Part shown: piece by piece, positions 4,082 through 41,257 of the stretch | Layout of the letters: each line of letters opens with the position of its first letter | Numbering within the stretch: position 1 is the first letter of the stretch | Assembly: GCA_037441345.1 (NCBI GenBank) | Contig: JBBISJ010000001.1 | Location: 67,660-131,659, forward strand | Source of the DNA: Chloroflexota bacterium | GTDB lineage: Bacteria; Chloroflexota; Dehalococcoidia; SM23-28-2; RBG-16-64-32 | Direction of reading: 5' to 3' | Length of the DNA stretch: 64,000 nucleotides | The notes under the pieces: generated by a model | Databases searched by the model: none | The model's input: the letters and a program-made list of their open reading frames with translations, nothing else | Told to the model about the DNA's origin: nothing | Translations under genes and position numbers: made by a program

Positions 4082-5800
4082 TCAGGGTGCAGATGGGGCG
4101 TAGTCTGCGATGCGAAGTTCCATTCCCCGGTCCGCGCCGCTATCGGCGGAGAAAGTATACACAACGTCCAGCCTGTGCCCGGCCTCCAGGCCGTGGTCGC
4201 CGCCGTTGGCAAGACCGAAGGCGATCGCCGGCCAGGTGATGCGTCCTGCTTTCAGCTTGAGCTTCAAGTGAGTCCCGTCGTTGCCGACGGTGCGGGCGTC
4301 TGCCACTTCTACCCCCCGGCTCAAGAACATGGGCTCCGGGTTGTCGACGCCGAACGGCGCCATCTGCTTCAGTGGCGGGAACAGCCTGCCGCTGACCTTT
4401 TCGAGCGGGATCATCGCGTCGATCTCGGTAACCGGCGTCAGGTCGATGCCGCCAAGCTCCGCGGCCGTGGTTGCGCCCATGGCCTCCTTCAGCGCCTCCA
4501 GGTTCTCGTTGCGGGCCGTGAACCCGGCTGCCGCGCGGTGGCCGCCGAAGCGAACAAGGAGATCGCCAGACTTGCGCAACGCTGCGGTGATGTCGAACTC
4601 GGGAATGCTGCGGCAGGAGGCGCGGCTGGTGTCGGGGCCGCGCTCGTACACGATCGCCGGCTTGTTGTGGCTCTCTGCGAGGCGGCCCGCGACGAGTCCG
4701 ACGATGCCCGACGGGATGTCCGGGTGGCCGATGAAGATAAGGGGCGCGCCCGGATCCTCGTCCGCCAGCAACTCCTGCGCCAGGTCCATCGCTTTCTGGG
4801 TCTCGGCCTGGCGGAGCTGGTTCAGGCGGTTCAATTCGCCGGCGGTCTCCCGCGCGCGGTCTTCGTCCTGTTCCAGCAGCAGTTCGAGGGCGAGGCGGGC
4901 GTGGGCGAGCCGGCCCGCGGCGTTCAGACGCGGGCCGAGCGCGTAGCCAATAGTGTCAGTGCCCACGCCGCCGGTTCCCCCGTTGGCGGTCTCCAGGAGG
5001 GCGCGGATTCCGGGCCGCGCGGTCGCATTCAGGGCACGCAGGCCCTCGCGAACGAGCCAGCGGTTTTCGCCCCGGAGTGGCGCCATGTCACAGACCGTGC
5101 TGAGTGCGACCAGGTCGATGTAACGGCCGCCGTCCCAGGGGCGGTTCTCAGCGGCGTACAGCGCTTCCATCACCCGGTATGCCAGCCCGCCGGATGCCAG
5201 CTCGGGCTCAGGATAGCTGCTGTCTGCCCGCTTTGGGTTGATGACGGCAACCGCGTTGGGAAGCTCCGGCGGGACGGTGTGATGGTCCAGCACAATCGTG
5301 TCGGCGCCCAGGTGGGTGGCGAGCGCGATCTCGTCGACCGAACCCGTGCCGCAGTCAGCGGTGATGATCAGCGATACCCCGCCGGCCGCCAGCTTCTCGA
5401 TGGCAGGCGGGTTGACGCCGTACCCCTCTGTGAAGCGGTCGGGGATGTAAGACTCGACGTGTGCGCCGAGGCCCTGCAGCGCCTCGATCAGGATGGCGGA
5501 CGCAGTCACTCCGTCGACGTCAAAGTCACCGTAGACGGCGATCGCTTCACCGCTGTGCGTGGCACGCCACAGGCGCTCGACGGCCGGGCCGATGTCCGGG
5601 AGAAGCGAAGCGTCGTGCCGGGGGTTGGCGGCGGACATGTAGGCCTCCGCCTGCGAAGCATTGCGGATCCCGCGGTGCCACAGGAGGTGGCGTATGAGCG
5701 GCTCCCAGGGGGCATCCCCGAGCGCGTCTTCCGGAAACCGCCCGCGCAATCGCCAGCGCCGCCCGGAGACTCCCGTCATTGGTGGGGCAGTCGTCACCAT
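4082..5800 (-). CDS. recJ: single-stranded-DNA-specific exonuclease RecJ
   Basis: DHH motifs (IAVYGDFDVDGVTASAIL, …DHH…), DHHA1 region; start chosen at ATG 5800 (MVTTAPP…) rather than ORF-track 5944. Confidence 0.85.
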   Translation of the reverse strand: MVTTAPPMTGVSGRRWRLRGRFPEDALGDAPWEPLIRHLLWHRGIRNASQAEAYMSAANPRHDASLLPDIGPAVERLWRATHSGEAIAVYGDFDVDGVTASAILIEALQGLGAHVESYIPDRFTEGYGVNPPAIEKLAAGGVSLIITADCGTGSVDEIALATHLGADTIVLDHHTVPPELPNAVAVINPKRADSSYPEPELASGGLAYRVMEALYAAENRPWDGGRYIDLVALSTVCDMAPLRGENRWLVREGLRALNATARPGIRALLETANGGTGGVGTDTIGYALGPRLNAAGRLAHARLALELLLEQDEDRARETAGELNRLNQLRQAETQKAMDLAQELLADEDPGAPLIFIGHPDIPSGIVGLVAGRLAESHNKPAIVYERGPDTSRASCRSIPEFDITAALRKSGDLLVRFGGHRAAAGFTARNENLEALKEAMGATTAAELGGIDLTPVTEIDAMIPLEKVSGRLFPPLKQMAPFGVDNPEPMFLSRGVEVADARTVGNDGTHLKLKLKAGRITWPAIAFGLANGGDHGLEAGHRLDVVYTFSADSGADRGMELRIADYAPSAP

Positions 5801-5885
5801 CCTGCCAATGATTATGGGGGCCAGCCGGTGGACGTGACAGGGGCGAGTGGCAGCCGGTTGTTGAGAATGTGGGTGGCGATGCCGA

Positions 5886-6530
5886 TTAACGCGAGAGTGC
5901 GTCGATCTCCGGGTCCGCCATGCCAAGCAGCGAACCCAGCACATAGCGGTTGTGCTCGCCCAGGGCGGGGGCGGGAAGCCGGAGGTGCAGCGGCGTTTCG
6001 CTGAGGCGCCAGGGCGAAGCCGGGACCGCGGTCACTCCGGTAAGGGTCGAGACTGGCTCGGTTGCGCCGGCGGCCGCGCGGTCGGTTGCGGTCGCCTCGC
6101 CGTGATCCGCGGTCACTTCGATCAGGCCGCCCAGTCCGGTGCGGCGGCGGTCCCAGAGGGCGAGACCGACGGCTCCCACAGCAGCGACGGCATCTGCTGG
6201 GCTGCCTCCGGGTGGCAGGAGCACGAGGATCAGAGCCTCGTTGGCATTTCTCATCCCTTCGCTGGCGATCGAACCCGCCGTGGCGATGAGGACGTCCGAG
6301 AGCCCCGCCAGGCGGGTGAGGACGTCCGGTCGCTTCGAGACGTCGAAAGCGCAGCAGTACTTGTTGGCGTTGAGCGCCTGGAATCCGTCCGTCCCGCGGA
6401 GGCTATCCCCGGACGGCGGCTCGACCTTGATCACCTCCGCGCCGAGGTCGCCAAGGAGGCGGCCGGTGAGCGCCGACGCGCCGTCGGTGAGGTCCAGCAC
6501 GCGGTGGTCAAAGAGGGGTAGCCTGTACAC
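5886..6530 (-). CDS. CoA-transferase family III (CaiB/BaiF)-like mini protein, paralog 1
   Basis: GTG start 6530; N-terminal VLDLTDGASALTGRLLGDLGAEVIKVEPPSGD and C-terminal ALGEHNRYVLGSLLG motifs of family III CoA-transferases but only ~214 aa. Confidence 0.55.
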   Translation of the reverse strand: MYRLPLFDHRVLDLTDGASALTGRLLGDLGAEVIKVEPPSGDSLRGTDGFQALNANKYCCAFDVSKRPDVLTRLAGLSDVLIATAGSIASEGMRNANEALILVLLPPGGSPADAVAAVGAVGLALWDRRRTGLGGLIEVTADHGEATATDRAAAGATEPVSTLTGVTAVPASPWRLSETPLHLRLPAPALGEHNRYVLGSLLGMADPEIDALSR

Positions 6531-7200: not shown

Positions 7201-7958
7201 CAGATGTTCGACCAGCTCTGCCCGCCGTCTACCACGATCGTCGCGCCGGTAACCCAGGACGAGCGCGGCGAACAGAGGAAGGCGACGACGTTCGCCACTT
7301 CCTCGGCTGTACCGAAGCGGCCCATCGGGATGTTCTCCTTCACGAACCGTCCCATCCCTTCCGGGTCTTCCTGCTGGCGTCGCCACCAGCTGCCGCCGGG
7401 GTGGCTGATTGATCCTGGAGCGACCGTGTTGACCCGGATGCCGTCCGGAGCGAGAGCGCGGGCCATCGACTTGGCGCTGCTGATGAGCGCGGCCTTGGCG
7501 GCGTTGTAGCCGGGCTGGCCTCCGGCTTCCTTTCCCCAGATGGAGGAGAGGTGGACGATCGAGCCGCCGCCGGTCGCCTTCATTCGGTCGGCGCAGAGAC
7601 GAGCCAGTCGGACCGCGGGCAGGAACAGCGTGCCCATCGACTCGTGCCAGACAGCGTCCTCGAACCCGGGGGCGGAGAAGTGAATGCTCGTCACGAGGGC
7701 GTCGACGCGCCCGAAGCGATCCACGGCGGTCGAGATGAGTTGCTCCGCGCCTTCGGGCAGGGTGACGTCCGCCGCGACCGCAGCCGTTTCGACGCCGAGT
7801 GCACCGGCCGCATCGACTGTCTCCCGCAGGGCATCTTCGCCCCGTGCCGCGAGCACCAGGTGGCAGCCCTCACCTGCCAGCGCCTGCGCCGACGCGCGGC
7901 CGATGCCGCGCGAAGCCCCGGCGATGACGGCGACCTTACCGGAGAGCTGAAGGTCCAC
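7200..7958 (-). CDS. SDR family oxidoreductase
   Basis: [16 protein letters not shown] Rossmann motif, YNAAK catalytic motif; stop overlaps start of CoA-transferase paralog 2. Confidence 0.8.
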
Positions 7959-35533: not shown

Positions 35534-35610
35534 TGGTGGGCGATGCTGGACTCGAACCAGCGACCTTCTCGGTGTAAGCGAGACGCTCTGACCAACTGAG
35601 CTAATCGCCC
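35534..35610 (-). tRNA. tRNA-Val (anticodon TAC), CCA encoded
   Basis: manual cloverleaf on minus strand: GGGCGAT-TA-GCTC-AGTTGGTCA-GAGC-G-TCTCG-CTTACAC-CGAGA-AGGTC-GCTGG-TTCGAGT-CCAGC-ATCGCCC-A-CCA. Confidence 0.85.
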
Positions 35611-35778
35611 GTATTTGTGGCCTTTGTGTAGGCGAGACGCTCTGACCCCCGCCAGAGGCGGGTCCGCCTCCGGCGGAAACTGAGCTAATCGCCCGTATTT
35701 GTGGCCTTTGTGTAGGCGAGACGCTCTGACCCCCGCCAGAGGCGGGTCCGCCTCCGGCGGAAACTGAGCTAATCGCCC
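35611..35778 (-). repeat. two identical tandem 84-nt units, each a tRNA-Val 5' half (acceptor 5' strand, D-arm, anticodon stem/loop) carrying a 30-nt hairpin insertion in the D-loop plus a 15-nt spacer
   Basis: 35611-35694 and 35695-35778 identical; minus-strand reading GGGCGATTAGCTCAGTT[TCCGCCGGAGGCGGACCCGCCTCTGGCGGG]GGTCAGAGCGTCTCGCCTACAC+AAAGGCCACAAATAC. Confidence 0.85.
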
Positions 35779-36074: not shown

Positions 36075-36096
36075 GGAAGAACTTTGTTTGTTCGAG

Positions 36097-36163
36097 TGTG
36101 CGAGACGCTCTGACCCCCCGCCAGGGGCGGGTCCGCCTCCGGTGGAGACTGAGCTAATCGCCC
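36097..36163 (-). repeat. third, diverged copy of the tRNA-Val 5'-half element with D-loop insertion, acting as 5' leader of the GIY-YIG gene
   Basis: minus-strand GGGCGATTAGCTCAGTCTCCACCGGAGGCGGACCCGCCCCTGGCGGGGGGTCAGAGCGTCTCGCAC then 22 nt to GIY-YIG ATG. Confidence 0.7.
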
Positions 36164-36204
36164 ACGCTTGCTCTATTGTAGGGCGGGCGTCGCGTGTCGG
36201 GAAT
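36164..36204 (-). promoter_or_regulatory. second copy of the 41-nt TACAAT-containing element, immediately after transporter stop codon
   Basis: GATTCCCGACACGCGACGCCCGCCCTACAATAGAGCAAGCGT (minus strand), ~90% identical to 35779-35819. Confidence 0.35.
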
Positions 36205-37596
36205 CTACGTCGGCGGCGCCGGCCCCTTTGACAGCCTCGGCACTGGCGGCCGCCAGCTCTCCCGCGCCGCTGCCCAGAAGTCGCGCATGAACGGGACGTC
36301 GCGCGCCAGGACGAATGCCGCGATGACGCAGTACACCACCGCGTATCCCACCCGGATGCTCGTGTCCGTGAACGCGAACTGCGTCACGAACATCGCCGCC
36401 AGCAGCAGCGCCTCCCAGCGGCTCATCGTCAGGCTCACCAGGATCGCCACCGCAAACAGCGATTGCGCCGCCGTCAGGAACACCTCCTCCGACTGGCGGC
36501 CGTCGAAGTCCAGCGGCGTGATCGCGCCCCCCGAAACGGCGTAGGCCAGCGGCAGGCTGCCGATCAGCAGCGTCCACTGGTTCACCTTGGACGAGATCAG
36601 GATCGTCATTCCGGCGTCGTAACGCCCTCTCACCGCCAGCATCCCGGCCAGGATGAACTCCGGTGACTCCGAGGCCAGCGGCGCCACCCACTGCACGAGG
36701 ATGAACTCGTCGATGCCGAGGTTCGCGCCGCTCTCTTTGAGGCTCTCGGCGAACGGCTCTGCTGCCGCGAAGATAACGGTGGCTGCGTAGGCGAAGATGG
36801 CGAGCACCGTGATCCGCCGCGAAATCCGCGGCAGCGCGCCGATCGCCGCCGCCGGTCCCACGAACTCCCGATCGTGCTCCGGTGGTGAGCGGGAAGCGAT
36901 GTAGAGGTACGTGGCGAAGAGCGAGAACATGACCGTGGTGTCGATCAGCGAGAGGTGGCCGCGGATCGGGATGCTGAAGCTGTAGACGGTGGCCCCGCCG
37001 AGGAAGAGGATGCCGAGGGCGTTGCTCCGCTCGACGGGCATCACGTGCTTCTTGAGCTTGCGCCAGAAGATGAAGAAGATCACCGGCCACGCGAGTCCAA
37101 CGAGCAGCCGGTTGCCGCCCGTCATGTTCGCGATCGCGAAGTGCGCGTTGTCCGGGTTATCCGGCGCTGTCCAGGCGAAGTACAGGTCCACGGCGTACTC
37201 CGGCAGCACCGCGATGAGCGCCAGCACGACCAGCGCCAGCCCGGCCGAGATCTCCGTCTCCGCCACTTCCGAAGCCCAGGTCAACAACGTGGCCGCGGCG
37301 AACACGCCGAACCCGAAGATGGCCGCTTCCAGCAGGGGTGGCAGGTGCGGGTCCCAGGCGCCGGTCACGTTCAGTATCCGCAGCAGCGGGGCAGGGAGCG
37401 CCGCCAGCGCCGCGGTGATAAGCAGTAACCATTCGCGCACGAGCAGCCGGTCCACCTCGCGGATCGGCTCGATTACGTCGTAGTGCGGTCGGTCTGCGGG
37501 GCCGTGCGCCATACAACATTCGAGTATATCCGCGGGCAGTTTGTGGGGGAACGCGAGTTTCTGGATAATAGAGTGCACCCACCGCCCTGCCCTCAC
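36205..37596 (-). CDS. CaCA-family cation/Ca2+ antiporter-like membrane protein
   Basis: polytopic; alpha-repeat-like …[10 protein letters not shown]…; true start probably internal (MAHGPADRP… ~37512). Confidence 0.55.
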
Positions 37597-37644
37597 GGGG
37601 GATGCGCCAGGCGCGCCGCGGTGCCGGAAGGAGGAACGGGCGCC

Positions 37645-39312
37645 TTGACCGAGCCCAACGGAAGCAAGAACAAACAGGACTGGCTGGAAGGCCGCTACGC
37701 TCGCACTGTCCAGAAGTCAGCCGAGCGCGAGTACCCGTTCGAGACGTCGGACGGCATGAAGGTCGAGCCCCTCTACACGCCGGACGACCTCAACGGCTGG
37801 GACTACGAGAAGCAACTGGGCTACCCGGGCGATTTCCCCTTCACCCGCGGCGTCCAACCCACGATGTACCGCGGCCGCCTCTGGACGATGCGCCAGTACG
37901 CCGGCTTCGGCGACGCGGAGGAGTCCAACCAGCGCTATCGTTACCTGCTCGGCCAGGGCCAGACCGGCCTCTCTGTCGCCTTCGACCTGCCGACCCAGAT
38001 CGGCTACGACTCGGACCACGCGATGGCCGAGGGCGAGGTCGGCAAGGTCGGCGTCGCGATCTCCTCCCTGGCGGACATGGAGCTCCTGATGAAGGAGATC
38101 CCGCTGGAGAAGGTCACGACGTCGATGACGATCAACGCTACCGCCGCCGTCCTGCTGGCGTTCTACGTGGCGCTGGCGAAGAAGCAGGGTGCGGACCTCT
38201 CGAAGATCGGCGGCACCACCCAGAACGACATCCTGAAGGAGTACATCGCCCGCGGCACCTACATCTACCCGCCCGAGGGCTCGATGCGCCTGATTACGGA
38301 CACCTTCTCCTTCTGCAAGGACAACCTGCCCGCCTGGAACACGATCAGCGTCAGTGGCTACCACATGCGCGAGGCCGGTTGCACGGCCGTGCAGGAGGTC
38401 GCCTTCACCCTGGCGAACGGCATCACCTATTGCGAGGCAGCGCTCAAAGCCGGGCTCGAGTTCGACGAGTTCGCCCCGCGCGTCGCCTTCTTCTTCGCGT
38501 CCTTCACCAACCTGATCGAGGAGGTCGCCAAGTTCCGCGCGGCCCGGCGCCTCTGGGCGCGAATCGCGAAGGAGCGGTTCGGCGCGAAAGACCAGCGCAG
38601 CATGATGCTCCGCTTCCACACCCAGACAGGCGGCTCCACCCTGACGGCTCAGCAGGTCGAGAACAACATCGTCCGAACGGCGATCCAGGCGCTCGCGGCT
38701 GTCCTCGGCGGCACGCAATCACTCCACACTAATTCGATGGACGAGGCGCTGGCCCTGCCGACCGAGAAGGCCGTGCAGATCGCGCTCCGTACGCAGCAGG
38801 TCATCGCCTTCGAGAGCGGCGTCGCCGACGTCATCGACCCGCTGGCCGGTTCCTACTACGTTGAGAAGATGACTGACCGGATCGAATCTGAGGCGATGAA
38901 GTATATCGACCGGATCGAGGACATGGGCGGCTCGCTGCGCGCTATCGAAAGCGGCTACCAGCAGCGCGAGATCCAGGAGGCCTCCTACCGCTACCAGAGG
39001 TCCGTCGACGAAGGCTACCGCTACGTCGTCGGCGTCAACAAGTTCACCACCGACGAGGAAGAGCGGCCGGAGATCCTGCGCGTCCGCGAGGAGGTCGTCC
39101 GGCGGCAGATCGAGCGCCTGAACCGCGTCCGGGCCGAGCGCGACGAGGCGAAGGCGCAACAGATGCTGCGGTTGCTCGGCGATGCGGCTCGGTCGGACGC
39201 CAACCTGATGCCGGTGCTGATCGAGGCGGTCGAGAACTACGTGACGCTGGGCGAGATCTGCGACGTGCTGCGCGGCGTCTTCGGCACCCAGCACGAATTC
39301 ATGGTGTTCTAG
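37645..39312 (+). CDS. methylmalonyl-CoA mutase (or related acyl-CoA mutase) catalytic subunit, no B12-binding domain
   Basis: TTG start with GGAGGA SD; [45 protein letters not shown] near-identical to MCM consensus; ends before cobalamin-binding domain. Confidence 0.85.
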
Positions 39313-39380
39313 TGCAACGCCTCGGAGGTGGCGGCAACCTGCGCACTCCGCATGAACGCCATAGCAGGGTGCCGGACAGC

Positions 39381-39515
39381 GGGGTGTGCACAGGGGCGGA
39401 GGCCCCGCCGCGGGGGTCTGGGTGTGTCCCCCACGTTCAATTTCTATCTCTGGGGAGGGGTGAGGTGGAGGGCCGGAACTTCGCCATCCACTATCAATCT
39501 ACTCAGGTGACACTC
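39381..39515 (+). repeat. ~135-nt structured repeat, copy 1 (5' of PPOX-family gene)
   Basis: GGGGTGTGCACAGGGGCGGAGGCCCC…GGGGGTCTGGGTGTGTCCCCC…AATCTACTCAGGTGACACTC; three internal GC hairpins. Confidence 0.6.
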
Positions 39516-39532
39516 CGGGAACGGCCTTCGTC

Positions 39533-39955
39533 ATGCGCGCGATGACGGACGCTGAGCGCGATGCCTTCCTGGCCGAACCCCGCTACGCCATTCTTACAAC
39601 GCTCCGCAAAGACGGATCGCCCGTCAGCGTGCCCGTCTGGTTCGAGTGGGACGACAACGTCGTCAGAATGTTTACCCACATCGTCACGGCGAAGCTGAAG
39701 CGCATCCAGCATGACCCCCGCGCTTCCGTCCTCGTCGCCAACCGCGTGGACGAGCCGGAAACATGGGTCGCGTTCGACGGCCGGTTGACCGTGCGCGAAG
39801 ACGGCGGCCTGGATCTCGCCGAGCGCCTCGCGCCGAGGTACTGGAACCTGGACGACCCGGCGCGCTCGGGCGCCCTGGAAGCGTGGCGGCAGATGGCGTC
39901 CGGCTGGCGCCTGCTCGAGCTTGTGCCGGAGCGTATCCGCACCTACGTGGACTAG
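39533..39955 (+). CDS. pyridoxamine 5'-phosphate oxidase family protein (PPOX class, probable F420-dependent)
   Basis: RYAILTTLRKDGSPVSVPVWFEWDDN split-barrel FMN/F420-binding signature. Confidence 0.7.
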   Translation: MRAMTDAERDAFLAEPRYAILTTLRKDGSPVSVPVWFEWDDNVVRMFTHIVTAKLKRIQHDPRASVLVANRVDEPETWVAFDGRLTVREDGGLDLAERLAPRYWNLDDPARSGALEAWRQMASGWRLLELVPERIRTYVD

Positions 39956-39987
39956 TGTATTGTCGCGGGATGGCGAAAGAACGGCGC

Positions 39988-40103
39988 GTGCAGAGAAGGC
40001 GGAGCCCCGGCGCCTGTCCTGAGCGTAGCCGCGGGGCCGGGATTTGGCGGTGTCCCGACGTTCGATTTCGGCCACTGCGAGAGGGGTGTGGCGGGCGAAT
40101 CGC
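39988..40103 (+). repeat. structured repeat copy 2 (diverged, with internal insertion)
   Basis: GTGCAGAGAAGGCGGAGCCCC…GGTGTCCCGACGTTCGATTTCGG…GAGGGGTGTGGCGGGCGAATCGCC. Confidence 0.5.
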
Positions 40104-40167
40104 CTGTTTGCGGATGGCGGTGACCGGCTCGGCCTGCGCCAACGGCTTCCGCACGCTGTCGGCAAAC

Positions 40168-40305
40168 GGGGTGTGCAGAGGGGCGGAGCCCCTCGCCGGG
40201 GGTTTGGGGGTGTCCCCCAGGCTCATTTCCACCCGTGGGGAGGGGTGGGGCGGGGAACCGGAACTTCGTCTTCCAGTACCCCAATCTACTCAGGAGACAC
40301 TACAC
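40168..40305 (+). repeat. structured repeat copy 3 (5' of DfsB-like gene)
   Basis: GGGGTGTGCAGAGGGGCGGAGCCCC…GGGGGTTTGGGGGTGTCCCCC…CCAATCTACTCAGGAGACACTACAC, ~75% identical to copy 1. Confidence 0.6.
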
Positions 40306-40331
40306 TAGAGAGACACCAGAAAGGTGGCGTT

Positions 40332-40793
40332 ATGAGCCGCATCGATGATCTCCTCGCTGACCTCGAAGCCGCCTTCGCCGAACTGAAGCAGTCGATGGCG
40401 GGACTCACCCACCAGCAATTGCTGGAACGCTGGTTCGGCGAGTGGTGCGTGTACGACATCTGCAGCCACATCATCGGCTGGCACCACGAGATGGACGACG
40501 CGCTTGACCGCATCTCGCGCGGTGAAAGACCGACGCCGGAGGGCGTCGACTACAGCGACGAGGACGCCTGGAACGCGCGGTTCATTGAGACCTGGGTCCA
40601 GTCCAGCGGCGAGGCCGTGCTCCAGGAGCTTGACGTGAGCAAGGACCTCTTCGTCGAGGCGGCCCGCCAGGTGCCAGACGAGAAGTACAAGGAAGGGCGC
40701 GCCGCCTACCGCATTCTCACCGACACCGGCGCCAACCACTACCGGGAACACGCGGCGAACATCCGGGAATGGCGGGAGCGAGTGGGGATATGA
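40332..40793 (+). CDS. DfsB/ClbS-like (DUF1706) four-helix-bundle protein, paralog 1
   Basis: ATG 40332 with AAGGTGG SD; motif CSHIIGWHHEM comparable to ClbS SYLIGW…HWH. Confidence 0.5.
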   Translation: MSRIDDLLADLEAAFAELKQSMAGLTHQQLLERWFGEWCVYDICSHIIGWHHEMDDALDRISRGERPTPEGVDYSDEDAWNARFIETWVQSSGEAVLQELDVSKDLFVEAARQVPDEKYKEGRAAYRILTDTGANHYREHAANIREWRERVGI

Positions 40794-41257
40794 GGGAGAC
40801 CGGCCTCCACCAGCAGCTGGTTGCGATCCTTGACGAGGCTGCGCAGCGGGTCAGCCGGGCGATTGAGGGTCTGACTGACGAGCAAGCATCGCGACCGGCT
40901 GATGACGGCTGGTCTGTGAAGGACCAGCTCACGCACATGACGTTCTGGCACGAGATGCGCTTCTTTGAGATCAGCCGCATCGCCCGTGGCGGGCGCGCGG
41001 CGTTCCCGGACACAGAGGAGAAGTACATCTGGCACGTGAACAACCAGATGGCGGAAAACCGCCGCGGACTCCCACTCTTGCAGGTCATAGCGGACCTGGA
41101 CTTCGCGCGGGAAATGGTGAAGCAGGCGGTAATGGCGGCGCCGGAAGACCGCCTGGACCAGTCGCTGTACGGGGAGATCGGCATCCAGGGAGGGGCGGCC
41201 CACGAGATCGAGCACGCCGGGCTGATCGAGTCCTGGCGCAAGAAGGAAGGCGTATGA
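40789..41257 (+). CDS. DfsB/ClbS-like protein, paralog 2
   Basis: ATGA overlap with paralog 1; shares W-x-V-x-D-x3-H-x3-WHEM-x5-RI motif (WSVKDQLTHMTFWHEM). Confidence 0.5.

Follow-up and report, generated by a model that had tools for sequence, protein, structure and literature searches.

What are the three related repeats with GC-rich hairpins that lie in the same orientation, within 1 kb, between the genes of one operon of a Dehalococcoidia bacterium: leader RNAs of the genes that follow them, or mobile DNA? The analyzed stretch (hereafter the window) comprises 64,000 nt of contig JBBISJ010000001.1 (positions 67,660 to 131,659; assembly GCA_037441345.1), and the original prediction, made from its letters, had allowed for two answers, i.e., a repeated cis-regulatory RNA (riboswitch or attenuator) or an element akin to repetitive extragenic palindromes (REPs) or miniature transposable elements with inverted repeats (MITEs). 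We conclude that the repeats are most probably decayed members of a lineage-specific, non-coding, mosaic MITE-like family of Dehalococcoidia, that is, genomic parasites or passengers, and not a riboswitch. The three copies belong to a family that is dispersed and restricted to intergenic DNA; its canonical copies carry terminal inverted repeats (TIRs) and target-site duplications (TSDs), the orthologous sites of related operons are empty, and in one relative the element has been multiplied by tandem duplication.

The repeats and their distribution

Copies 1 and 3 align on the + strand (39364-39514 vs. 40151-40301) with 79.1% identity over 153 nt (blastn, E 1.8e-30), and three motifs quoted in the original prediction occur exactly twice each in the window, with 0.00-0.06 occurrences expected from shuffled sequences. 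Copy 2 is a degenerate relative, which matches copy 3 in two segments (73% over 74 nt, E 7.6e-4, and 86% over 29 nt, E 0.003) and reaches just 7.3 bits with the covariance model of the family (R1), by which copy 1 was matched at 39375-39442 (53.4 bits, E 2.5e-12) and copy 3 at 40162-40228 (73.2 bits, E 7e-18). The three-repeat observation is therefore real, but the similarity of copies 1 and 3 sets in near 39354 and 40139, approximately 17-27 nt upstream of the starts originally given. The distances of 18 and 27 nt between the ends of these copies and the start codons at 39533 and 40332 proved correct. All three copies are intergenic, lie on the + strand and are in sense orientation relative to the genes; further copies were found in the window neither by blastn nor by an unfiltered covariance-model search. 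The copies are about 143-163 nt long and differ by indels of 1, 1, and 2 nt, which are not codon-like. A small open reading frame inside the element was also considered and rejected, as the reading frame is not kept between subfamilies.

A 21-mer of the core, GGGGTGTGCANAGGGGCGGAG, was searched for as an exact match in one genome per species of bacteria and archaea. This resulted in 53 loci, on both strands, 51 of which came from metagenome-assembled genomes (MAGs) of Dehalococcoidia/Chloroflexota, and two individual MAGs had 11-16 and 13 occurrences. The window's own genome is outside this species-representative set, and the copy counts refer to other genomes. Within the sampled DNA (0.47 Mb; single loci are denoted below by L and a number), a profile of the 5' part of the element found 104 copies and model R1 found 106. 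A core-like copy of 47 bits (L026, 2292-2357) comes from a contig in a Crenalkalicoccus (Alphaproteobacteria) bin and may reflect either mis-binning or transfer, while the exact 21-mer of a Fraserbacteria MAG (L030, 7923-7943) falls in an apparent 5' part of RNase P RNA (followed by GAGGAAAGTCCGGAC) and, judging from this sequence context, is probably a chance match. The core had no match in the viral-contig collection, and no published description of the repeat family was found in the literature searched by name and by core sequence.

The original prediction had recognized no Rfam family in the repeats, and this was confirmed by searches at gathering thresholds and at E ≤ 10 in the window. 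At gathering, the window yielded two tRNAs, its best sub-threshold match being BjrC80 (17.6 bits vs. a threshold of 80), and the window together with 18 sampled loci yielded tRNAs, one T-box, and one SAM riboswitch, none of them on the elements, canonical copies included.

Genes around the copies were called with a self-trained codon model, which reproduces the database calls for the window. The 106 copies are distributed over 81 spacers and none overlaps a gene. Spacers with an element are tandem in 45 cases, convergent in 12, and divergent in 11; the corresponding background counts are 214, 43, and 44. The 137 neighboring proteins matched 219 Pfam families, none of which was present in more than four proteins, and no recurrent transposase was among them. 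As the spacer types mirror the background and the neighbors are heterogeneous, the family behaves as a generic intergenic repeat and not as a leader RNA with a regulon. In co-directional spacers, sense sites outnumber antisense ones (33 vs. 12, p=0.0025), and orientations are never mixed within a multi-copy spacer.

The operon of the window offers a direct comparison. Its spacers of 220 nt (39313-39532) and 376 nt (39956-40331), upstream and downstream of a PNPOx-like gene, are filled by the repeats, each inserted after a stop codon and ahead of the next gene's ribosome-binding site. In five related contigs with the same gene order, the sites are empty and the spacers measure 9-21 nt. Two of them (L055 and L056, PNPOx 68% identical) have the arrangement mutase-11 nt-DinB_2-overlap-PNPOx-10 nt-DUF1706, the third (L069, PNPOx 63% identical) has spacers of 13 and 21 nt, and the two JGI contigs, of P0004 (PNPOx 72%) and P0003 (73%), have spacers of 9-14 nt; the unfiltered covariance model found no element in L055, L056, and L069. 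The closest relative (L068, PNPOx 76% identical) carries three sense copies directly after the PNPOx stop codon (78, 72, and 66 bits). Two of these belong to a tandem duplication of 217/218 nt (364-788, 89-91% identity), which spans the last ~70 nt of PNPOx, the spacer, and the element, and which shows how copies in the same orientation multiply within one spacer. The same copy-number dynamics are visible in another orthologous spacer, with one copy in L024 and a five-module array in L053.

These data bear on the first of the two original options, according to which a riboswitch, attenuator, or other leader would control the PNPOx/F420-type and DinB-like genes. Sense copies ending 18-27 nt before start codons speak for it, as do hairpins that covary (see below) and the lack of a contradicting known family. 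However, the element is missing upstream of the orthologous genes in all five related contigs, it stands in 81 spacers beside unrelated genes (convergent spacers and antisense orientation included), a single genome holds at least 11-16 copies, and canonical copies bear TIRs and TSDs. A cis-regulatory RNA is thereby refuted as a general explanation, and for the window itself we consider its probability negligible. The other option, a REP- or MITE-like element, is supported by the dispersal of the family in many copies and by the TIRs and TSDs of its canonical members.

Terminal arms and target duplications

The anatomy of the element was taken from the 41 best-preserved copies (the canonical cluster). 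A full-length element has approximately 140 nt between the target duplications, with a range of 140-168 nt between the flanks in canonical copies (MITEs being shorter than about 500 bp), and consists of the following parts, in 5' to 3' order:

flank, usually CTAG
5' arm, CAGG(C/A)TG(C/A)TGAAAnAC (CAGGnTGnTGAAAnAC)
leader, GGGGTGTG
hairpin 1, CAGAGGGGC-GGA-GCCCCTTTG, with a stem of 10 bp if the G-C pair involving the leader's final G is included
linker, CCGGGAG
hairpin 2, TCTGAGGG-TGT-CCCTCAGA (8 bp)
A/T-rich stretch, TATAATTTCT
hairpin 3, CCCCCTTCCTGG/CCAGGAAGGGGG, C-rich/G-rich and variable in sequence
G-rich segment
3' arm, the complement of the 5' arm (...CAGCCTG or ...CACCCTG)
flank

Canonical copies have inverted arms of 13-16 nt at their termini and sharp boundaries, with ends of the form CAGGnTGnTGAAA...CCTG (bounding arm sequences CAGGnTGnTGAAA ... 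TTCnnCAnCCTG; arm pairs CAGGCTGCTGAAA / TTCCGCAGCCTG and variants), and the similarity between copies ends sharply outside CTAG...CTAG. As the consensus CTAG is palindromic, only deviant flanks can tell pairing from a direct repeat. Identical 4-nt direct flanks were found in 11 of the 25 copies having both arms, and seven of these flanks are non-palindromic (CTAA twice, CTAT, CCAG, TTAG, ATAG, and CTGG), against 1.05 expected when the 3' flanks were shuffled (P=5e-5); flank pairs that are complementary only occurred once among the 25 copies (1.0 expected). A duplication of 4 bp at (C/T)TA(A/G), or YTAR, is a signature of IS5 (PMC5009759). In view of the inverted arms and the 4-bp direct flanks of the YTAR type, we therefore place the canonical copies among the MITEs, with a target like that of IS5.

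The same ends bear on mobilization of another kind, in which a REP/BIME- or PATE-like element would move as single-stranded DNA (ssDNA) by an HUH tyrosine transposase (RAYT/TIRYT or IS200/IS605 TnpA) recognizing hairpins and not TIRs. The conserved unit does consist of two short, GC-rich, imperfect palindromes, the family is mosaic with clusters and tandem arrays like those of BIMEs, its orientation bias is compatible with strand-specific ssDNA transposition, and the core begins with GGGG(T/A)GTG, comparable to the GGGGWSAS motif that accompanies the double-palindromic TIRs of TIRtrons (PMC3733652). Yet elements of the HUH type do not make inverted arms with 4-bp direct target duplications, and GGGGTGTG departs from GGGGWSAS at position 7. 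A REP is by definition a palindrome of 20-40 nt that ends on one side in the conserved tetranucleotide GTAG (or CGTC) (PMC3733652), but neither tag stands beside the hairpins, which in the consensus are flanked by GGGGTGTG, CCGGGAG, and ATAT. In the sampled loci, inverted copies enclose lipocalin-like, histidine kinase, sortase/FtsY, and pentapeptide/TIR/epimerase genes and no Y1 transposase, and in this limited sample Y1_Tnp is not among the recurrent neighbor families. Such a mechanism seems to us very improbable. Its special case, a PATE of the IS200/IS605 type (no TIRs, no target duplication, subterminal hairpins), was rejected, since canonical copies have TIRs and a 4-bp TSD. An integron attC site or cassette array was rejected as well: the ends are CAGG.../...CCTG flanked by CTAG, the consensus has no GTTRRRY core, and in relatives these small genes are packed into a tight operon free of repeats.

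With the canonical element as a guide, the parts of the three window copies can be listed (all on the + strand):

39354..39514, +, copy 1, between the methylmalonyl-CoA mutase gene and the PNPOx-like gene (blastn vs. copy 3, model R1)
39365..39380, +, copy 1, 5' arm-like segment CAGGGTGCCGGACAGC with ATAG before it, degenerate, aligning to the canonical 5' arm
39381..39435, +, copy 1, conserved core with leader GGGGTGTG, hairpin 1, linker, and hairpin 2 (covariance-model alignment)
39393-39406, +, copy 1, hairpin 1, GGGGC-GGAG-GCCCC
39412-39432, +, copy 1, hairpin 2
39452..39472, +, copy 1, G-rich tract GGGGAGGGGTGAGGTGGAGGG (G-rich side of hairpin 3), aligned with the G-tracts of L038, L035, L003, and L068
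39473..39514, +, copy 1, 3' arm-like segment AACTTCGCCATCCACTATCA and tail CAATCTACTCAGGTGACACT, read from sequence
~39964..40106, +, copy 2, degenerate (blastn vs. copy 3, alignments, covariance model)
39964-39982, +, copy 2, 5' arm-like segment CGCGGGATGGCGAAAGAAC, followed by an eroded hairpin 1
40013..40037, +, copy 2, optional insertion module CCTGTCCTGAGCGTAGCCGCGGGGC of ~25 nt (alignment with family members)
40043-40059, +, copy 2, eroded hairpin 2
40079-40097, +, copy 2, G-rich remnant, then ...CGCCTG
40139..40301, +, copy 3, directly upstream of the DinB/DUF1706-like gene (blastn vs. copy 1, model R1)
40168..40221, +, copy 3, conserved core with leader, hairpin 1, linker, and hairpin 2 (covariance-model alignment)
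40178-40194, +, copy 3, hairpin 1, GAGGGGC-GGA-GCCCCTC
40203-40221, +, copy 3, hairpin 2, TTTGGGGG-TGT-CCCCCAGG
40237..40255, +, copy 3, G-tract GGGGAGGGGTGGGGCGGGG, a G-quadruplex-type motif
40260..40301, +, copy 3, 3' arm-like segment GGAACTTCGTCTTCCAGTACCCCA and tail CAATCTACTCAGGAGACACT, the latter common to copy 1

The three hairpins per copy that had been described fit the architecture of the family (hairpin 1, hairpin 2, and hairpin 3 or a G-rich tract), but in the window hairpins 1 and 2 are partly eroded. The 3' arm-like segment of copy 1 was compared with the consensus 3' arm TTTTTCAGCACCCTG and with TTTTCCAGCACCCTG of individual copies, and TTCCAGTACCCCA of copy 3, as read from the sequence, resembles the 3' arm TTCCAGCACCCTG of individual canonical copies. 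The tail shared by copies 1 and 3 aligns with the diverged tail of the third L068 copy (copy c). When the window-specific tail, CAATCTACTCAGGNGACAC (an 18-base pattern), was scanned for in the JGI metagenomes, the 11 matches were all due to chance, lying in low-GC, unrelated contexts without the core. The insertion module of copy 2, CCTG(T/C)CCTGAGC..G(C/T)CGAAGGG, recurs in L003, L029, L033, L045, L036, L017, and L019, placed either between hairpins 1 and 2 or within hairpin 2, and as this variant is known from other genomes, copy 2 is not a simple local copy of 1 or 3.

Several observations weigh against the MITE interpretation. The window copies have neither intact inverted arms nor demonstrable target duplications, and their arm-like remnants are degenerate. 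Around 20 nt past the putative 3' arm are common to copies 1 and 3, and because of this overrun, these two copies possibly arose by segmental duplication and not by transposition. No autonomous insertion sequence (IS) with the same arms, and no TIR-bracketed segment of transposase size, was found in the 53 sampled loci (~0.4 Mb), and the only IS seen there, a resident element of the DDE type (in L007 and L021), was rejected as the parent, since its ends are unrelated to the arms of the element. The TSD flanks were read by eye, in 25 copies. Moreover, the internal core is better conserved than the arms, which is unusual for a MITE, hairpin 1 is sometimes swapped for an unrelated one, in many copies nothing but the core, or a tandem array of it, is present, and the orientation is biased to sense; these four features hint at a constraint or activity centered on the core that a plain MITE does not explain.

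The resident IS is 1.7 kb long, occurs once in L007 (198-1929) and in three adjacent copies in L021 (1-3996), and is 86-90% identical between the MAGs. It encodes a 441-aa DDE_Tnp_1_4/DDE_Tnp_1 transposase and has the TIR AGCCCGAATCCACCGAA and flank repeats of 4-5 bp (TTAG; GTAAG).

The conserved two-hairpin core

The family is mosaic around its core. Tails alternate between a G-tract, as in the window, and a T-rich form in apparently marine MAGs (a Tara Oceans run and the CB9 set); some copies are core-only, others form tandem core arrays with a period of 88-138 nt; a stem insertion, CCTGnCCTGAGC...GnCGAAGGG, is optional and is the one also present in copy 2; and in several copies the whole of hairpin 1 is replaced by an unrelated hairpin, GATCCCGAC-AAG-TCGGGATT. 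In an alignment of 53 core sequences, 94.3% of the cells of the two stems are paired and 18 double-sided changes are present (among them seven of CG to GC and six of AU to GC), values reached by none of 500 shuffles, and the hairpins are therefore structurally maintained. Wobble pairs other than the consensus wobble are not skewed towards one strand (G.U 18 vs. A.C 24); given this, and as palindromic DNA yields the same signal, the covariation does not demonstrate an action of the structure as RNA. The hairpins do covary, but covariation by itself does not separate a riboswitch from a REP/MITE element. Identity is 0.91 in the linker and 0.95 in hairpin 2, both outside the search pattern, against 0.78 in the arms and 0.78 in hairpin 3, and the conservation of the core is partly inflated by ascertainment through exact matches.

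Signals of transcription were scored in the same elements. The fold energies of single copies are not below those of shuffled sequences (z -0.74, -0.70, and -0.05 for the three window copies). One terminator-like site was found, at hairpin 2 of copy 1 (39419-39439), against 0.6 expected in shuffles, and no sigma-70-like promoter was found in 39200-40500. In many relatives a TATAAT-like hexamer without a -35 partner follows hairpin 2, and in many a T-rich run begins 5-8 nt past it. The G-tract of copy 3 is the sole motif with four G-runs and loops of 1-2 nt on either strand of the window.

It may be asked, then, whether the two-hairpin core, with hairpin 3 or the G-tract, is a domesticated or otherwise functional structured module, kept, however it was spread, because it acts at the level of DNA or of the transcript. 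It might serve as a barrier to 3'-exonucleases or a stabilizer of mRNA, as a partial terminator between operon segments, or as a protein-binding site; in the window, such a module would tune the relative expression of mutase, PNPOx, and DinB. Conservation above that of the arms, stems that are maintained by double-sided changes, and wholesale replacement of hairpin 1 by another hairpin all argue in this direction. The same is true of the optional stem with its UGA/GAA internal-loop pattern (and a GCAA loop in L003), of the sense bias with its consistent orientation in each spacer, of the A/T- or T-rich stretch after hairpin 2 (flagged as terminator-like in copy 1), and of a sense copy in L008 that stands between a T-box leader and its gene. 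On the other hand, the wobble pairs lack strand asymmetry, sense-strand folding and terminator-like sites do not exceed shuffled expectation, palindromes covary for DNA-level reasons too, and a part of the apparent conservation comes from exact-match ascertainment. The element is also absent from orthologous operons, which accordingly do not require it. On balance, we regard a functional module as unlikely, though clearly less so than an HUH-type mobile element or a riboswitch.

A more far-reaching form of this proposal, to which we likewise assign a low probability, is that the core GGGGTGTG-hairpin 1-CCGGGAG-hairpin 2 is itself the functional module, an RNA or a signal recognized by a protein or enzyme, kept by purifying selection across marine and soil Dehalococcoidia and able to spread or be reiterated without arms. 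Arm-independent spread may account for the core-only copies, the tandem arrays, the stem swaps of hairpin 1, and the optional GA-motif stem. If this were true, the core would be a new kind of hairpin-centered mobile or regulatory unit, possibly acting with the adjacent G-quadruplex-type tract. A hammerhead ribozyme (CTGATGAAA ... GTCGAAAG) was considered and rejected: the common variants CUGCUGA and AUGACGA break invariant core positions, the geometry of the cleavage site does not fit, and there is no match to the Rfam hammerhead models.

Some individual loci deserve separate mention. The L008 copy (4892-4959) lies between the T-box leader (4448-4734, 104 bits) and the gene start at 5035, and by this position it is inside a regulated 5' leader. 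In L047, a locus with a cluster of five tRNAs, a canonical copy (2590-2748) is found directly downstream of a tRNA gene (5' flank ...GGTTCGAGTCCCCCATCGCCCACCA). Downstream of copies of the G-tract type in L035 (~3000-2880, - strand) and L024 (~7410-7500, + strand), there are homologous sigma-70-like promoters (TTGACA-17-TAATAT and TTGATC-17-TACGAT), overlapping CGAAC-N4-GTGC, which resembles a LexA (Cheo) box of the Gram-positive type. The same MAGs harbor a second repeat family (L016, 2033-2211; L051, 1320-1384 and 3471-3536; L027, 7496-7561), composed of a G-tract, GGGCGGGTGGGCGGG, followed by AAGAGGGCACCCCAACGGGGGAGGTACGGG..AGTGGGAGAATGAAAAGGCCC; G-tracts akin to that of copy 3 (GGGCGGGTGGGCGGG and similar) are present both there and in L003, L035, and L038.

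History of the operon and comparison with known systems

The genes of the run in which the repeats reside are:

37483-39312, +, methylmalonyl-CoA mutase
39533..39955, +, PNPOx-like (F420/FMN-type) gene (Pfam PF01243, E 2.2e-15), context outside the element
40332..40793, +, DinB/DUF1706-like gene (Pfam PF08020, PF11716), downstream of copy 3
40790-41257, +, second DinB/DUF1706-like gene (DinB-superfamily Pfam models)
further genes, +, two glyoxalase-like and one methyltransferase

Since both DinB/DUF1706-like genes match DinB-superfamily models, they look like tandem paralogs. Short DNA similarities were also noticed between the first of them and both the second and the next glyoxalase-like gene.

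For the MITE-like family, which we favor, the following course of events can be proposed. A DDE transposase, an enzyme type that we infer, would act in trans and insert the element at YTAR-like sites with a 4-bp duplication, as IS5-type enzymes do, and the copy number per spacer would then shift by tandem duplication or recombination. At this locus, an element would have entered a formerly tight operon (mutase-PNPOx-DinB-DinB-glyoxalase...) in an ancestor that the window lineage shares with that of L068 and would have been amplified locally by tandem duplication; at least one further event would have introduced the insertion-bearing variant that is now copy 2, and decay would have followed, eroding the arms and leaving the copies 21% divergent. 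Possible remnants of the 3' end of PNPOx upstream of each window copy, which would prove a segmental duplication, are weakly significant (P 0.01-0.04). In L055, an extra DinB_2 gene (5552-6001, 149 aa) lies between mutase and PNPOx, at the place where the window has the 220-nt spacer with copy 1, and gene loss may have accompanied the insertion there.

As all copies are sense and lie between a stop codon and a ribosome-binding site, they are presumably co-transcribed with the operon as a GC-hairpin spacer RNA. With their arms eroded and a divergence of 21%, they are probably no longer mobile. As has been reported for REP, BOX, and Correia elements, the copies may, as a side effect, alter the stability or decay of the mRNA or terminate part of the transcripts; this would be a by-product and not dedicated sensing of a ligand or signal.

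Elsewhere in the window, a tRNA-Val gene (35534-35610, - strand) adjoins perfect tandem repeats of 84 nt (35594-35677 and 35678-35761, 100% identical), with a further copy near 36091-36205. Each unit contains AACTGAGCTAATCGCCC (the reverse complement of the tRNA 5' end, acceptor and D-arm), a GC hairpin, and a piece resembling an anticodon arm. The repeats are partial tRNA-like units in reiterated form and could represent either integration-site scars or pseudo-tRNAs.

For annotation, the consequence is that this locus does not belong in a list of candidate riboswitches. With the covariance model (68 positions, 18 pairs), one could annotate or mask a family widely spread among uncultured Dehalococcoidia, marine MAGs derived from Tara Oceans apparently among them, and repeats of this kind can break assemblies, mislead the discovery of non-coding RNAs, and mark recent genome rearrangement. 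The locus also exemplifies how mobile hairpin elements invade tight operons in Chloroflexota and then expand by tandem duplication, and the conserved core, the hairpin swaps, and the G-quadruplex-type tract provide leads on whether such inserts shape operon expression.

Amongst known systems, riboswitches and attenuators share with the window copies a structured sense-strand sequence just upstream of start codons, but the family described here is not conserved at orthologous loci, lacks a coherent regulon, occurs in both orientations and in all spacer types, and has transposon-type ends. REP/BIME/REPIN elements (RAYT) are likewise extragenic, GC-rich, imperfect palindromes that form clusters and mosaics and possibly stabilize or terminate mRNAs. 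In contrast to them, the Dehalococcoidia element has no GTAG/CGTC tag, no RAYT association was found, its canonical copies have TIRs and TSDs, and its two distinct hairpins stand in direct order and not as inverted REP pairs. Closer in organization are the pneumococcal BOX (boxA-boxB(n)-boxC) and Neisseria Correia elements, intergenic repeats of modular, mosaic build that have inverted ends, allow tandem reiteration of an internal module, are predicted to form stable hairpins, and are frequently co-transcribed with the flanking genes. They are unrelated in sequence and belong to other phyla, and Correia elements duplicate TA, whereas the present family duplicates 4 bp. IS5-derived bacterial MITEs differ in that here no parent IS with matching ends was identified in the sample, the core is conserved above the arms, many family copies are armless or core arrays, and the window copies lack demonstrable TIRs and TSDs; with these MITEs, however, the family shares a length of ~140 nt, the absence of coding capacity, terminal inverted arms, 4-bp flanks of the YTAR type (CTAG, CTAA, TTAG, TTAA), and a multi-copy, intergenic distribution with presence or absence between relatives.

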